A DNA stretch of 64,000 nucleotides from a virus, in IMG/VR virus record IMGVR_UViG_3300027782_000036; one strand, written 5' to 3'. Each line of letters opens with the position of its first letter. The stretch's first letter is position 1. Under the pieces are notes generated by a model. That model was not told the origin of the DNA. It was given only the letters and a program-made list of their open reading frames with translations, and did not search any database. This document shows, in pieces, positions 4,556-64,000 of this stretch. Made by a program: the position numbers and the translations under genes.

Positions 4556-5172
4556 GTGACGATATTATAAGCATAGACACGGGTGAATTGGCCAAGGTTA
4601 AACCAACGGCAACCAAAGTTGAAGTTCCATTATTTAAATTGGTATCAGAAGATAATCCTATTTTACGACAACCAATTGAAAAATTTGATTTTGAAAATCC
4701 ACCAGTTAATCCAAATGCGTTTGCTAGTTCGTTAGTTGAAACATGTAAAGCAAATAAAGGTTTAGGTTTATCTGCTAATCAATGTGGTTTTAAATATAGA
4801 GTATTCGTAGTTGGTTATGCTGAAAATTATGTTGCATATTTTAATCCAAAGATTACATGGGTATCTGATGTGTTATCACATGCTGATGAAGGATGTTTAT
4901 CATTCCCAAATTTATTCATAAAGATTACCAGACCAGAGTCAGTTGAAGTTGAGTATCAAGACTTTACAGGTGAAACTAAAACAGCAAGATTTGGCGGTCT
5001 AACTGCCAGATGTATACTTCATGAGTTTGATCATATGAATGGTGTGGTATTTACCACTCAAGCTAAACCATTAGCATTAAAAACTGGTCTTGACAAACGT
5101 ATGAAACTTGTGAGAAAATATGAAAAGTATTCAAAACTATTACAAAAACAAGTGAAGAAATTAGGTAAATAA
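4552..5172 (+). CDS. def: Peptide deformylase
   Basis: GLGLSANQ, EGCLS and HEFDH motifs. Confidence 0.93.
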   Translation: MSDDIISIDTGELAKVKPTATKVEVPLFKLVSEDNPILRQPIEKFDFENPPVNPNAFASSLVETCKANKGLGLSANQCGFKYRVFVVGYAENYVAYFNPKITWVSDVLSHADEGCLSFPNLFIKITRPESVEVEYQDFTGETKTARFGGLTARCILHEFDHMNGVVFTTQAKPLALKTGLDKRMKLVRKYEKYSKLLQKQVKKLGK

Positions 5173-59449: not shown

Positions 59450-59664
59450 TGGCAGGTCCAAGTGTAAAGGTTCATCCAGGCAAACGTAAAGGTAATCCGA
59501 TGCTCACCAGAAATGGTAGACCAAGATTAGGTCCATTAAATGTAAAACAATTAGTTGCTTTGTTAGATAAGACATCGGCTGTTAAGATAAAGGCGAAGAT
59601 CGTGAGAGAGATAGCGAAGAAGAATCTTCGTTTGATTAAGAAGAACCATCCAGAAATTTTGTAA
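59449..59664 (+). CDS. Small basic hypothetical protein
   Basis: AGGAG RBS; K/R-rich; last + strand gene of the block. Confidence 0.65.
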   Translation: MAGPSVKVHPGKRKGNPMLTRNGRPRLGPLNVKQLVALLDKTSAVKIKAKIVREIAKKNLRLIKKNHPEIL

Positions 59665-59815
59665 TCCTGTGACTGGGGCTCCAGAAAAAAAATTCGAATT
59701 CAAGAGAACCGGTACCAGATTTTAAGTAACGCCATGACCCGTTCGGGCCATGGACCACAATTTTACACTGGCCTAGGCTGCTTGCCAACCTAAGCCACTT
59801 GTGTTACCATTCCAC

Positions 59816-59944
59816 CTATTTAAACTGTGAGAATGAGTCCGTGCTTTTATACTCCGAAAAGTCGTCCGCTGATGCGCCTATAATTGCATATTTTACCAAT
59901 AATGCCAATACCACACCAACCAATATACCTTTGATTATATCCAT
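59816..59944 (-). CDS. 42-aa single-TM protein
   Basis: AAGGAG RBS before MDIIKGILVGVVLALLV. Confidence 0.55.
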   Translation of the reverse strand: MDIIKGILVGVVLALLVKYAIIGASADDFSEYKSTDSFSQFK

Positions 59945-60062
59945 GCCATTCTCCTTTATATTAATGATAGCCAATGGCATACGCCTGCCAATAGGCCAAA
60001 TATGGCCTGTGCCACTCCATAATGGAATAGGACCCAGGCCAAGGCCAACCATAGGATGGTCC

Positions 60063-60230
60063 TCATCCAGTGAACACCATTTGGCTGTAACCAATTGGCT
60101 TGGATGAGGTGGTGTATGTATGGCTGGTCCGTGCCTTCTGACGGAAGGTACGGCTGCCCTTGGTGGCACGGACCTTGTGGTCCACTGTGACCTTGATACC
60201 CATGGCTCTATACTCTGCTAATGTAATCAT
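60063..60230 (-). CDS. 55-aa basic hypothetical protein (not in the ORF track)
   Basis: AGGAG RBS; MITLAEYRAMGIKVTVDHKVRATKGSRTFRQK... Confidence 0.55.
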   Translation of the reverse strand: MITLAEYRAMGIKVTVDHKVRATKGSRTFRQKARTSHTYTTSSKPIGYSQMVFTG

Positions 60231-60292
60231 ATGTTCTCCTAATGTGAGGTGGTGGTGAGGTAGCTTAAGGTAAGCTTGAGGTAAACTCCTGG

Positions 60293-60535
60293 TTAGTCCA
60301 GGAGTGTCATGTATTCTGATGGGTAGTATTGGCGGAACAAGTCTAGTCCTTTGCGGACTGTGCCATACTCGCCTATCATCTCTGCGCCTTTGATGAGGTC
60401 ATAGAGTGAGACAGCATAGCGGTCTAGTGTAGCGCTGTCACCGCTAAATGGGTTTTCTACTGTAGCGCCTTCTTGGTAAAGAGTGATACCAGGGAAGGTC
60501 TTGAGGATCTTTGCTTCGATTGTAACTTGAGTCAT
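60293..60535 (-). CDS. Early hypothetical protein
   Basis: GGAGAG RBS and its own promoter. Confidence 0.7.
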   Translation of the reverse strand: MTQVTIEAKILKTFPGITLYQEGATVENPFSGDSATLDRYAVSLYDLIKGAEMIGEYGTVRKGLDLFRQYYPSEYMTLLD

Positions 60536-60601
60536 TTTTTTCTCTCCGTGTTTTGTTATTGAATAAACCATTATACAGGTTTCTGGTAAAAAGGCAAGCG
60601 G

Positions 60602-60859
60602 TTAAGCCGCTTCCCTTTGGTTTTCTCGGACTCTAAACATGATGAACTTAGCACGGTTGATATACTGTCTAGCAGTCTCGTGGTCTGGTTCGCCAAATTC
60701 AGCGCTTAGCACCTCTTGAGCGTCTGATAGAATTCCAGCTGCGAACATGATTTCCTCGCCTGGAAAGCATTGCGTTTTAACGATATGCTCTAGCTGCGCC
60801 TTGCTGCAACCATAACATTGTAATTCCCATGCTAACTGTTCTTTTTGACTTCTTTCCAT
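60602..60859 (-). CDS. Early hypothetical protein
   Basis: GGAGAG RBS and its own promoter. Confidence 0.7.
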   Translation of the reverse strand: MERSQKEQLAWELQCYGCSKAQLEHIVKTQCFPGEEIMFAAGILSDAQEVLSAEFGEPDHETARQYINRAKFIMFRVRENQREAA

Positions 60860-60979
60860 TTTTCTCTCCGTTTTGTTATTGTTCATGTTACCATTATAAC
60901 GGAATAGGGGGAAAAGGCAAGCGTTTACCGGAGAGAGTGGTAAATAAAGTGCTTGCCTTTTCGGAGGGGGTGTGATATA

Positions 60980-61159
60980 CTAGCTGGTGGTATTGGCTAG
61001 GAGTAGCTTGTGGATTTTGTCTTCAATCACCGGTGCTCGGAAATCTGGATCGGCTGCTCTCAAGGAGTGCCAGATATACTCCAGCTGGTCGAGCGTTATC
61101 TCTTGGGTGCCTAGGCAATTATTGCCGGACTCGTCCCATCTTTTTAAGGTTATGCTCAT
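60980..61159 (-). CDS. Early hypothetical protein
   Basis: GAGGA RBS; last gene of a coupled run. Confidence 0.55.
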   Translation of the reverse strand: MSITLKRWDESGNNCLGTQEITLDQLEYIWHSLRAADPDFRAPVIEDKIHKLLLANTTS

Positions 61160-61160
61160 G

Positions 61161-61376
61161 TTAATCATCCTCATGTAGGTTAATATAGTCTGGTGTATCT
61201 TGGCGCTGCAGTGCTACAATCCGCTCATCGGTTGCCTTCTGCAAGAATTCCACCGTGGACTTTAATAGTGCCTCGAAGTCACCAATGGACACCAATTCGT
61301 CCATGTTATTCAGAGTGGATAGGATATGGAAGTCTCCATCGTCCCGCTCTATGCCTATGCTATAGCAGATGCTCAT
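61161..61376 (-). CDS. Early hypothetical protein
   Basis: Coupled run; GAGG RBS. Confidence 0.6.
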   Translation of the reverse strand: MSICYSIGIERDDGDFHILSTLNNMDELVSIGDFEALLKSTVEFLQKATDERIVALQRQDTPDYINLHEDD

Positions 61377-61579
61377 GTTACCACCTCGGATGCTGTCATC
61401 TCGTGGTGCCAGTATTCCCTGGTTTGGTAGTCATCATCTTCATAACGGTCTACTGGAATATAGGTCTCTTGGTCTTTAACTATTCGCATGGCCTCTTCGG
61501 CGGACTCTGCCTCAACCGTATAGACCTCGGTCTCAATGAATTCAACCACCTTTGGTAATCGTACCGTGAATTTACTCAT
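61373..61579 (-). CDS. Early acidic hypothetical protein
   Basis: GGAGG RBS; YTVEAESAEEA motif. Confidence 0.65.
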   Translation of the reverse strand: MSKFTVRLPKVVEFIETEVYTVEAESAEEAMRIVKDQETYIPVDRYEDDDYQTREYWHHEMTASEVVT

Positions 61580-61775
61580 ACGCAGCCTCCACACAATTTG
61601 CTACCGTGTTTATCGCTACTTGCACTGCCGTCCATACTGCCATCGGATTGTCCGATGCCTTTGCTACCATGTCCACATAATCATATGCGGCTTGTAGGTC
61701 GGTGCCCTTGTCAGCGAACATCGGGTTTTTTAACGACATCACCAAGTCGGACTTGCTCATATCAAAATTGCTCAT
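61572..61775 (-). CDS. Early hypothetical protein
   Basis: AGGGG RBS; coupled to neighbours. Confidence 0.6.
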   Translation of the reverse strand: MSNFDMSKSDLVMSLKNPMFADKGTDLQAAYDYVDMVAKASDNPMAVWTAVQVAINTVANCVEAAYE

Positions 61776-61776
61776 A

Positions 61777-61980
61777 CTATTCCCCCTTGAGTTCATAATT
61801 AAAAGTCTGAATGATGTCATCCAGAATTTCCAAGCGGTCGATAGAACCGTAGCGCTCGGTCATATTTGCTTCACGGCGAACCAAGTCAAGTATTTCATTG
61901 ACATGGATTTGGTTGAGAACCGCCGTGTTTGCTTTCTTGTCCTTCTCAACCTTGGTGATACAATATATTACATTTTGCAT
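61777..61980 (-). CDS. Early hypothetical protein
   Basis: AAGGAGAG RBS and its own promoter. Confidence 0.65.
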   Translation of the reverse strand: MQNVIYCITKVEKDKKANTAVLNQIHVNEILDLVRREANMTERYGSIDRLEILDDIIQTFNYELKGE

Positions 61981-62027
61981 TTTTCTCTCCTTCGTTTACT
62001 GTATAAACCATTATACAGGTTTACCAG

Positions 62028-62060
62028 AAAAAGGCAAGCACTATTTTCGCTTGCCTTTTT
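62028..62060. repeat. 12-bp inverted repeat formed by back-to-back -35 boxes (promoter/terminator stem-loop)
   Basis: AAAAAGGCAAGC-N9-GCTTGCCTTTTT; equivalents at 62307-62337 and 60912-60961. Confidence 0.85.
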
Positions 62061-62072
62061 CGGGAGAGCCTG

Positions 62073-62258
62073 TTATAATGTATAGGCTGAAAATCTCAAG
62101 GCGTCCTTCTTCAGGCATGTAGATTGACCTAAGCGGCCTGGTCGTCTAGGACCCCTATACTTAACTCTGAATTTCAGACCTTGTGATTTTGACCATCTTC
62201 TAAAAAGGTCAAGTTGTTTTATATCAATGTTAGAATATATGGCTGCTACTGTTTTCAT
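62073..62258 (-). CDS. Early basic hypothetical protein
   Basis: AGGAGAG RBS; YRGPR motif. Confidence 0.65.
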   Translation of the reverse strand: MKTVAAIYSNIDIKQLDLFRRWSKSQGLKFRVKYRGPRRPGRLGQSTCLKKDALRFSAYTL

Positions 62259-62350
62259 AGTTTTCTCTCCTTTTTAACTATACAATCATTATACAGGTTT
62301 ACCATAAAAAGGCAAGCACTTTCGGCGCTTGCCTTTTCTGCCGTTTTATG

Positions 62351-62644
62351 TTATGATAATAAGTTTTGAATTCGTGACACTGTTAGAGAATTGAAACCCC
62401 CAATGTGAAATTCTAGAATCTCATCATCATCATAAGCACGATATTCTTTATAGTCATAGATTGTAGCGACTAGACCATCATCGAATTCAATCAAATACTC
62501 ATTGCGTGTTTTTGAATCAATGTCAGCATAAGTCACTGAAGGCGCTTCAAATATATTTTTGAGATTTGATAATGAAGTCATAACAGACCCCTGATAACTA
62601 GTCCCTGATGTTTTATTGAATTCGTCTAATTTTAGTTTTCTCAT
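62351..62644 (-). CDS. Early hypothetical protein
   Basis: GTSYQG, ATIYDYK, FHIGG; own promoter. Confidence 0.7.
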   Translation of the reverse strand: MRKLKLDEFNKTSGTSYQGSVMTSLSNLKNIFEAPSVTYADIDSKTRNEYLIEFDDGLVATIYDYKEYRAYDDDEILEFHIGGFNSLTVSRIQNLLS

Positions 62645-62874
62645 AATTTTCTCTCTCTTAATTGTTATAATCATTATAACACAAATGGTAAAAAAGGCAA
62701 GTGTTATTTCTTGTCTTTATTCTATTCTATACTAGGTGGTTTGTATGTAATATTATGTCATTCCTTACAGCTTAATCAAAAAGTGCTTGCCATTTTTACC
62801 AGTTACTGTATAATGGTACCATACTGAAAAAAAGGTAGAGCGGAACCTGCGTCACGCTTATGTATCGCAGCAAT

Positions 62875-62901
62875 AAAAAAACAGGCACCTATAGTGCCTG
62901 T
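62875..62901 (-). terminator. Rho-independent terminator
   Basis: ACAGGCAC-TATAG-GTGCCTGT followed by a T tract on the - strand. Confidence 0.75.
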
Positions 62902-62959
62902 CCCAAAATAGCAATTGCCGATTATATCTGCTGGCGCTTGCCTTTTTGTCCGTTTTATG

Positions 62960-63691
62960 TTATAACACCGAAGCGATGTCCACTATATTATAAACATGCT
63001 TGACAAAACCAGTGCTATCTTTTTTTGCTTTGCCTTTAGCATATAGTCCCACAATAACATTGCGTGGATCTAAAAAGCGGAGGTCGCTCTCATCGCCATT
63101 AAATACCGTGGTATTCTCGTAGCGCTCTGGCAATTTCTTGTCAGCAAATACCACTGCTACATTGTAATTTTGCTCAATTGCTTTTACCACGTCCGCATCG
63201 TTGCCGTCTGCTGCAGAAAAGGTTAAGTGATAATTGGATGGCACGGTACGACCGACAACCTTGGTATAATCATAAAACTGGACTGTAGGAAACATATCGA
63301 AAATGTTCCTATAATCTGCTATTCTGATTTTTTCCCAGGCGATATCGCTCGTGCCGTTTAAACGGAAGACAGGCACAAGTCCACGCTTTTCAGCATAGAT
63401 AATTGCATTTTGAATTTCATGAGCAAGTGCTGACATAAAAGCGGATCTATTCTCAAAAAAGGCACGTGTCTTGCGTATACGTGCTTGCTGAATAACGTTG
63501 GTGCTTTCGCCTTTTTTGAATATACCACCACGACCGGCAGTATTTAAACATGCTGCTTTGCAACCAGCGGTTGCTTTAGGACAAGTCTGATATCCTGATA
63601 GATCAGCAGGCGCCAAGTGTAATATACTGGTTAAATAACCTTGCTTTTCGCCTTTTAATATCTTAGGGTTACCACGTGTTAATAATGACAT
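62960..63691 (-). CDS. Phage gp88-like Cys-cluster protein
   Basis: CPKATAGCKAACL, RLNGTSD, QFYDYTK, GDESDLRFLD. Confidence 0.7.
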   Translation of the reverse strand: MSLLTRGNPKILKGEKQGYLTSILHLAPADLSGYQTCPKATAGCKAACLNTAGRGGIFKKGESTNVIQQARIRKTRAFFENRSAFMSALAHEIQNAIIYAEKRGLVPVFRLNGTSDIAWEKIRIADYRNIFDMFPTVQFYDYTKVVGRTVPSNYHLTFSAADGNDADVVKAIEQNYNVAVVFADKKLPERYENTTVFNGDESDLRFLDPRNVIVGLYAKGKAKKDSTGFVKHVYNIVDIASVL

Positions 63692-63751
63692 TTTTCTCTC
63701 CTGTTTAATCATTAAGTACCATTATACATGAACCACCGAAAATGGCAAGCA

Positions 63752-63940
63752 CTATTTTAATTCCTGCATATTATCTACAGCGTCCCTAGCACCATAATAG
63801 GTGCTCTCATTAAACTGATCGGAAATTGGTGAATAGTCCTCATCTGGTACAGCATGATCGACCGCTTCGCACATAGCGGTATATAACACCTCGACCTCAT
63901 CATCCGTTAATTCTATGATGAATTTTCTTTTATTGCTCAT
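63752..63940 (-). CDS. Early acidic hypothetical protein
   Basis: AGGAGAG RBS and its own promoter. Confidence 0.6.
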   Translation of the reverse strand: MSNKRKFIIELTDDEVEVLYTAMCEAVDHAVPDEDYSPISDQFNESTYYGARDAVDNMQELK

Positions 63941-64000
63941 ATTTTCTCTCCTGATTAATATAGTACCATTATACATGAATACCGAAAAAAGTCAAGCGTT

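Follow-up and report, generated by a model that had tools for sequence, protein, structure and literature searches.

Does a promoter that lies across the stop codon of a gene, and faces back into that gene, serve to silence it, or is it left over from the way in which the gene was joined to its neighbor? The question arises at the end of a 64,000-nucleotide stretch of viral DNA (IMG/VR record IMGVR_UViG_3300027782_000036; the whole of this stretch is called the window), where small genes on the − strand follow repeated junction motifs and four promoter-like sites on the + strand each overlap a gene end. The original prediction took these sites for systematic antisense promoters that would provide a module-wise shut-off of early genes or form an array titrating host RNA polymerase. 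Comparison with related sequences leads us, on balance, to another reading: the sites, here called mirror sites, are probably relics or by-products of a symmetric, ancestrally bidirectional junction, a variant of the early-promoter and stem-loop cassettes (PeSLs) of T4-like phages, and do not amount to a conserved, selected shut-off.

Four Mirror Sites Overlap the Stop Codons of − Strand Genes

Direct reading and a pattern search both confirm four + strand sites consisting of TTGCCT, 17 nt, TGn, and a −10 hexamer, at the positions given originally: A1 at 60953..60981 (TG-A-TATACT), A2 at 62051..62079 (TG-T-TATAAT), A3 at 62329..62357 (TG-T-TATGAT), and A4 at 62938..62966 (TG-T-TATAAC). Every −10 overlaps the stop codon of a − strand open reading frame (ORF), these frames ending at 60980, 62073, 62351, and 62960. 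At A1 the last two hexamer bases lie in the stop CTA (60980-82) of gene 60980..61174. At A2, A3, and A4 the overlap is with TTA, the complement of the stop, at 62073-75 (gene 62073..62258), 62351-53 (gene 62351..62644), and 62960-62 (the GP88-family gene, 62960..63712), respectively. A2 is the best match of the four, with a spacer that resembles those of the sense promoters, and the predicted transcription start of A1 falls at ~60986-60988.

A1–A3 satisfy the sigma70 extended −10 rule (TGn, −12T, −11A, and −7T, with the −35 at 17 nt). They are competent by these sequence rules and may fire into the upstream gene. A4 fails at −7, where it has C instead of T; it was missed by a search for TANNNT and is probably weak or inactive. 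In agreement with the original prediction, the sequence and the ORF list contain no + strand ORF with a ribosome-binding site after any of A1–A4; the + strand ORFs at 60987, 61193, and 61702 lack such a site and overlap an operon having starts led by Shine-Dalgarno (SD) sequences.

Three of the sites stand back-to-back with sense promoters in perfect GGCAAGC/GCTTGCC inverted repeats (60916-22/60951-57, 62033-39/62049-55, and 62311-17/62327-33), as had been described. To call the arrangement systematic was an overstatement, since the junctions of three further sense promoters, P7 (60593-60615), P3 (~62693-62718), and P2 (~63740-63760), have no mirror −10. The P7 junction is a counter-example in which the mirror arm is degenerate (TTCCCT) and no −10 follows.

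The pattern TTGCCT-N17-TANNNT was observed four times against 0.85 expected, a count reached in 1/100 shuffles, and GCTTGCC 12 times against 2.2 (0/100 shuffles), although such tests overstate independence because the motifs are repeated copies of one module. A hexamer of at least 5/6 in the same register is present at 3/54 TAA-ending genes elsewhere in the window, outside the array (6%), and at 3/3 TAA junctions within it; the genome being AT-rich, TAnnnT arises at ~46% of TAA gene ends.

The Mirror −35 Boxes Are Arms of Predicted Two-Way Terminators

Each perfect inverted repeat lies in a hairpin flanked by A and T tracts. J1 (60912..60961) comprises A4-GGCAAGC, a 28-nt loop with an inner TTTACC/GGTAAA stem, and GCTTGCC-T4; J2 (62028..62060) comprises A5-GGCAAGC, a 9-nt loop, and GCTTGCC-T5; and J3 (62307..62338) comprises A5-GGCAAGC, a 9-nt loop, and GCTTGCC-T4. 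All fold on both strands, with energies for the − and + strands of −21.4 and −26.0 kcal/mol for J1 (z-scores −7.9 and −4.9), −22.5 and −22.3 kcal/mol for J2, and −21.1 and −16.8 kcal/mol for J3. Over J1–J3 the z-scores span −3.4 to −7.9, and a U-run follows each hairpin. We infer from these folds that J1–J3 are two-way intrinsic terminators. The A4 junction contains a degenerate counterpart, J4 (62911..62947), formed by GCAATTGCC, a 13-nt loop, GGCGCTTGC, and CTTTTT, with arms at 62911-19 and 62933-41 and no sense promoter behind it. The P3 junction has only a weak hairpin, and P1 and P2 have none (none lies between gene 63752..63940 and P2).

The hairpin arms are themselves the −35 boxes: the descending arm with its U-tract gives the sense −35 on the − strand, and the opposite arm gives the mirror −35 on the + strand. 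That the + strand −35 matches might only reflect terminator stem symmetry was the scenario named at the outset as fatal to an antisense function, and it is partly borne out, in that a palindromic terminator stem supplies both −35 boxes, one from each arm. In the same model, the next hairpin would confine any RNA from a mirror site to one cassette. A strong predicted intrinsic terminator acting on the − strand only, with a 12-bp stem and T7, lies behind the GP88-family gene (62878..62904).

The Sense Promoters Are Invariant

A promoter scan finds seven sigma70-like promoters on the − strand, all in a span of 3.7 kb and each standing before an SD sequence and a small orphan gene. Their −35 boxes are at 63995, 63748, 62700, 62315, 62037, 60920, and 60597 (P1 to P7), and all have TATAAT at 16-nt spacing. 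P1 (63968..63995; TTGACT, 16 nt, TATAAT) is predicted to drive gene 63752..63940, P2 (63721-63748) the GP88-family gene, and P3 (62673-62700) a 97-aa gene. P4 (62288..62315), P5 (62010..62037), and P6 (60893..60920) share the form TTGCCT, 16 nt, TATAAT and lead through an SD to an ATG at 62258, 61980, and 60859, respectively, the last belonging to gene 60602..60859. P7 and its hairpin, whose loop contains the stop codon of the upstream gene, were recognized by the scan and the fold together and occupy 60570..60615.

The − strand motif reads GCTTGCC(T/A)TTTT, 10 nt, TGTATAATG(G), ~20 nt, AAGGAGAGAAAA, and ATG. On the coding strand, a junction runs from the stop (TAA followed by CA) through ~10 nt to an A-tract, GGCAAGC, the loop, GCTTGCC, and a T-tract, and from there through 10 nt, TGTATAATG, and the leader to AAGGAGAGAAAA and the next ATG. 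Across the window and its relatives, 29/29 distinct copies of the sense arm have a perfect TATAAT, 28/29 of them at 16 nt, and TGn is rare.

The genome holds a second class of promoter, on the + strand before conserved blocks of + strand genes, with GCTTGACA, 17 nt, and TATAAT, TATGAT, or CATAAT (6441, 13088, 22144, and 56729). This class is distinguished by its 17-nt spacer and TTGACA, and has the GC prefix in common with the array promoters.

Cassettes Are Exchanged at the Junction Motifs

A search for the sense-promoter pattern returned 5 loci from IMG/VR and 32 from lake metagenomes. Over 59511-64000, L215 and the window are 98.9% identical, and L215 continues for a further 1.9 kb; L123, L204, L218, L222, L226, and L229 are 70-93% identical to the window in parts. 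The few differences between L215 and the window are clustered in a patch, 60975-61148, that starts inside a module. L218 is without the 97-aa cassette and the + strand unit, and has a ~100-nt unit instead. L204, L218, and L222 carry a different promoter and gene behind J2, and L123 has a different gene end at J1. In these alignments, the insertions, deletions, and replacements between the window, L123, L204, L215, L218, L222, and L226 map to the junction motifs. Divergent promoter pairs occur in the same hairpin type at L207 4964-4995, L215 4697-4729, L218 1300-1332, L222 879-911, and L226 475-506, and at the L207 pair genes follow both arms.

The contigs of the closest IMG/VR relatives end inside the array, as expected if the array repeats break assembly. 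In distant relatives, with peptidases 44-49% identical, this junction type is absent; they carry the GP88-family gene in operons or have a separate stem-loop upstream of the −35. Two other searches were set aside: a hairpin-only pattern gave ~118 IMG/VR loci, mostly unrelated terminators and with L002 as the sole relative, and a second pattern gave unrelated loci only, of 47-57% GC.

The Mirror Hexamer Changes with the Cargo

Spacing and stop overlap, proposed originally as features to be followed in relatives whose cargo differs, are indeed conserved there. In the A3/A4-type module, the alignment shows GCTTGCC.TTT....C..T.TATGTTA to be invariant up to and including TTA, the complement of the stop, and whatever lies beyond is cargo. 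The module thus brings with it the mirror −35, TGn, the 17-nt spacing, and the two bases that open the hexamer, and the C-terminal codons of the cargo make up the other four. Spacing and stop overlap are conserved because the module carries them, which tells against a selected promoter.

The hexamers themselves vary. For the 97-aa gene (A3), TATGAT in the window is TAGATT in the L226 orthologue, whose C terminus differs. For the GP88-family gene (A4), TATAAC in the window is TACGCT in L218 and L226 and TAAGCA in L222. The A2 type, which always has the same cargo, reads TATAAT in the window, L204, L218, and L226 and TATACT in L222. The A1 type, with a mostly non-coding hexamer, reads TATACT in the window and L123 and TATCCT in L204, L215, and L229, so that A1 is polymorphic even with respect to the 98.9%-identical L215. 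Cargo ends found only in relatives have hexamer scores of 5, 4, 3, and 2 of 6, against a genome baseline mean of 3.1, and the excess therefore rests on the window's own sites, which prompted the finding. The mirror hexamers do not show the constancy expected under purifying selection on the aligned sequences; the sense promoters are invariant.

By-product or Antisense Switch

These comparisons suggest how a mirror site would arise. The hairpin would terminate the upstream cassette while its descending arm and U-tract double as the TTGCCT −35 from which the next promoter is built. The stem is palindromic, with A and T tracts on its flanks, and so yields a −35 on the + strand as well. Seventeen bases past this mirror −35, the conserved 5′ edge of the module, TGTTA, would furnish TGn and the TA of a −10, and the remaining four bases would be whatever C-terminal codons the cargo brings. 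The mirror arms would be halves of a formerly bidirectional junction, pointing nowadays into the 3′ end of a gene that runs in the direction of its neighbors, and A1–A3 would in this genome happen to be good enough to fire. Several observations weigh against so passive an account. The 3/3 TAA junctions with a good hexamer, against the 6% baseline, exceed what the module alone predicts. TG, −12T, and −11A are retained in every mirror arm, and the non-coding A1 hexamer varies only at the tolerant −9 and at the n of TGn. In addition, GC before TTG is typical of the phage's promoters even where there is no hairpin, as at the four GCTTGACA promoters, and the arms therefore appear to be promoter-derived rather than arbitrary stem sequence.

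The enrichment over the stop-codon baseline also favors the reading closest to the original prediction, namely, that A1–A3 are selected, functional antisense promoters at cassette 3′ ends, where polymerase collision or RNA pairing limits the early gene and the two-way hairpin confines the RNA. With a −35 that matches at 4/6 as in the sense promoters, a 17-nt spacer, TGn, and a 5-6/6 hexamer including −11A and −7T, A1–A3 fit sigma70 well; the mirror sites form a distinct class (17 nt and TGn) set against sense promoters with 16-nt spacing and rare TGn; a predicted + strand terminator is available at the next hairpin; and antisense promoters at gene ends do repress in E. coli (PMC4731013). The anatomy and the sequence competence of A1–A3 thus stand as predicted, but several findings tell against a designed, module-wise shut-off: the hexamer is lost where cargo or C termini differ (TACGCT, TAGATT, and TAAGCA), the −35 boxes are terminator arms, A4 is without −7T, A1 is polymorphic in a near-identical strain, and several junctions have no mirror −10. 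The GP88-family gene of distant relatives, moreover, sits in operons without such an element, and no antisense activity is reported in the PeSL papers (PMC2839356 and PMC4122927). We consider a selected shut-off possible but doubtful. It is unlikely, in our judgment, that the junctions are bidirectional switches that travel with the cassettes, the sense promoter (16-nt spacer, −35-dependent) acting first and the mirror promoter (17-nt spacer, TGn extended −10, and hence little dependent on the −35) persisting after a phage factor has blocked recognition of the −35, the role of AsiA in T4; were this so, every acquired gene would have a built-in antisense off-switch bounded by two-way terminators.

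That the + strand sites instead make + strand products of their own, small RNAs or proteins, or combine with neighboring + strand promoters into an RNA polymerase-binding array, would accord with a full-consensus + strand promoter at 62785-62814 before a conserved ~130-nt unit and with four tandem + strand promoters, 35-65 nt apart, in L215 past the window end. We hold it to be very unlikely: no SD or start codon follows A1–A4, the operon with SD-led starts is overlapped by the ORFs at 60987, 61193, and 61702, which are without a ribosome-binding site, and the sequence downstream of the mirror sites is cargo, unconserved between junctions and without an Rfam match. Pure coincidence, in which stem symmetry and AT-rich stop contexts produce the sites with neither promoter ancestry nor activity, would get its −35 automatically from the palindrome and its TA from the stop, with TAnnnT at ~46% of TAA ends. 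Such an origin is most improbable given that the distance between the −35 and TG is the same throughout, in all mirror arms as in the sense arms, that the A2 spacer resembles sense spacers, that divergent promoter pairs occupy the same hairpin type, and that 3/3 junctions in the window contrast with the 6% baseline. The position of TG, the A2 spacer, and the divergent pairs accord with the ancestrally bidirectional junction that we favor.

Comparison with Known Elements

PeSLs, described in RB49/phi1, T4/PST, and KVP40/nt-1 (Arbiol et al., 2010, PMC2839356; Comeau et al., 2014, PMC4122927), combine a sigma70-like early promoter, an SD, and a terminating stem-loop. They cluster in hyperplastic regions before small orphan genes and mediate cassette exchange, and in one subclass the stem-loop overlaps the −35 (PMC2839356 and PMC4122927). 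Neither PMC2839356 nor PMC4122927 mentions antisense or bidirectional promoters or antisense activity. The present array resembles them in its T4-like genome, its hyperplastic cluster beside core genes, its repeated motif from the upstream stop through promoter and SD to the start, its small orphans, and its exchange at the motifs; folding of the array predicts stable hairpins that overlap the −35 and are followed by T-runs, as candidate terminators. A hyperplastic region of presumably early genes made of PeSL-type cassettes is the best explanation of the stretch as judged from its sequence. It differs from published PeSLs, with which it has no sequence homology, in that the stem is the −35 element itself (GCTTGCC and its complement), which with the A and T tracts makes a palindrome and a predicted two-way terminator, and in that a mirror −35 is present, at some junctions as part of an entire mirror promoter.

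In E. coli, repression by an antisense promoter at the 3′ end of a gene scales with the strength of that promoter and works through RNA polymerase collisions and antisense RNA (Brophy and Voigt, 2016, PMC4731013). The synthetic parts used there, a terminator plus an antisense promoter, likewise place a constitutive promoter at the gene 3′ end facing in, and A1–A3 would act in this way if they fire. The promoter of the synthetic part, however, lies beyond a one-way terminator, whereas here the −10 is on the stop codon, the −35 is in a two-way terminator, and activity is a prediction. Bidirectional intrinsic terminators, composed of an A-tract, a stem, and a U-tract, sit between convergent bacterial genes. 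The junction hairpins are similarly symmetric, with a T-run on both strands and a predicted stop from either side, but the flanking genes here are co-directional, and the second direction matters only if + strand transcription exists. Phage morons, which are promoter-gene-terminator units (PMC2839356), share with these cassettes the provision of a promoter and a terminator for each small gene; moron flanks are not conserved repeats, whereas the conserved flanks here are a likely substrate for recombination.

PeSLs are proposed vehicles of gene shuffling in T4-like phages, and the array extends them to an uncultured freshwater lineage. In the palindromic form, the roles of terminator arm, sense −35, and mirror −35 fall to a single 11-nt element, and such a junction could permit expression of cargo in either orientation. 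Should the mirror sites fire, each newly gained gene, which may be harmful, would bring a dampener of its own, a new principle for the tolerance of horizontal gene gain by phages. If they are silent, they are a warning that palindromic terminators beside AT-rich stop codons yield convincing false antisense promoters.

The Phage and Its Cargo Genes

Proteins encoded in the window include a gp43-type (T4-type) DNA polymerase, an SbcC-like gp46, a DnaB-like helicase, and ribonucleotide reductase, and its peptidase is 36% identical to cyanomyovirus peptidases; by sequence, the source is an uncultured freshwater T4-like phage. Near- and distant-mode DNA searches of the phage collection with the window gave no match, and a tRNA search found none. 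Rfam gave no match at gathering scores, and its E-value mode only two meaningless weak ones.

From ~59.8 kb to the window end, an array of small − strand genes takes over from the long + strand genes of a conserved block. PHROG and Pfam assign no function to 9/10 of the array proteins; the tenth belongs to the GP88 family (PF17338, phrog_1617), and its gene likely starts at ATG 63691, behind an SD. The 97-aa orphan gene (62351..62644) has its ATG behind an SD at 62644, the longest ORF reaching 62674. The gene predicted to be driven by P4 (62073..62258) is a 61-aa orphan from the ORF list; compared with L218, 27/52 of its substitutions are at third codon positions, in a codon-phase test of + versus − strand coding that was informative for few genes only. 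P5 is followed by a five-gene orphan operon (60980..61980) with overlapping starts and stops, the target of any antisense RNA from A1, for which no PHROG or Pfam function was found. The GC of the cargo at 60-62 kb (60000-62000) is 46% and that of the phage overall 32%. The operon, at 46% GC, looks like a recent gain from a higher-GC source.

One lake metatranscriptome run contains 39% of the sampled sequence words. Contigs from it agree perfectly with 61355-62025 and 62874-63850 and differ by a single mismatch over 63511-63850, these data being unstranded, without end information, and possibly inclusive of DNA. The uncovered parts of the region count as no evidence. Among the assembled contigs of this run there were no joints of mini-circles, which in PeSL cassettes would be excised by recombination between flanking motifs. 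Contig 6 of run X1 is exact over 62874-63469 and continues leftwards with 23 unrelated bases, which points to a further strain whose junction at the 62878-62904 terminator differs.

Other Signals in and around the Array

The full-consensus family promoter found by the scan on the + strand (62785..62814) consists of GCTTGCCA, 16 nt, and TATAATGG. The unit of ~130 nt predicted from it ends at ~62950 at the J4 hairpin (62785-62955) and converges on the 3′ untranslated region of the GP88-family gene. It contains a conserved motif, GGTAGAGCG, and a short hairpin, GCGTCACGC, followed by TATG. Paralogous units stand behind promoters in L215, L218, L222, L226, L207, and L233. The unit, which has no Rfam match, may be a small RNA or a leader.

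In L215, at 4700-5100 (~230-600 nt past the window end), the four tandem + strand family promoters include two of the 17-nt-spacer TGn form (TGATAGAGT and TGATAGAAT); the group may consist of PeSLs that have slipped or degraded, or may form a closely packed array of promoters. A 17-bp palindrome, ATGAGAAT(C/G)ATTATCAT, is present at ~4938-4975 in L215, ~3245 in L233, and ~5620 in L207. In the window such palindromes are not above chance. The sequence closely resembles the Fur-box consensus; an alternative reading is a mini-ORF, MRM(R)III(I)(K/R).

A conserved non-coding block of ~140 nt (59675-59812) separates the − strand array from the last + strand gene; it is 75-93% identical in L123, L204, and L124, with diverged spacers in L124. 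ARAGORN and Rfam found nothing in it. In the block, GCCTAGGCTGCTTGCCA is invariant and carries overlapping sites that resemble promoters, TTGCCA, 17 nt, TGnTACCAT on the + strand and TTGGCA, 17 nt, TAAAAT on the − strand.

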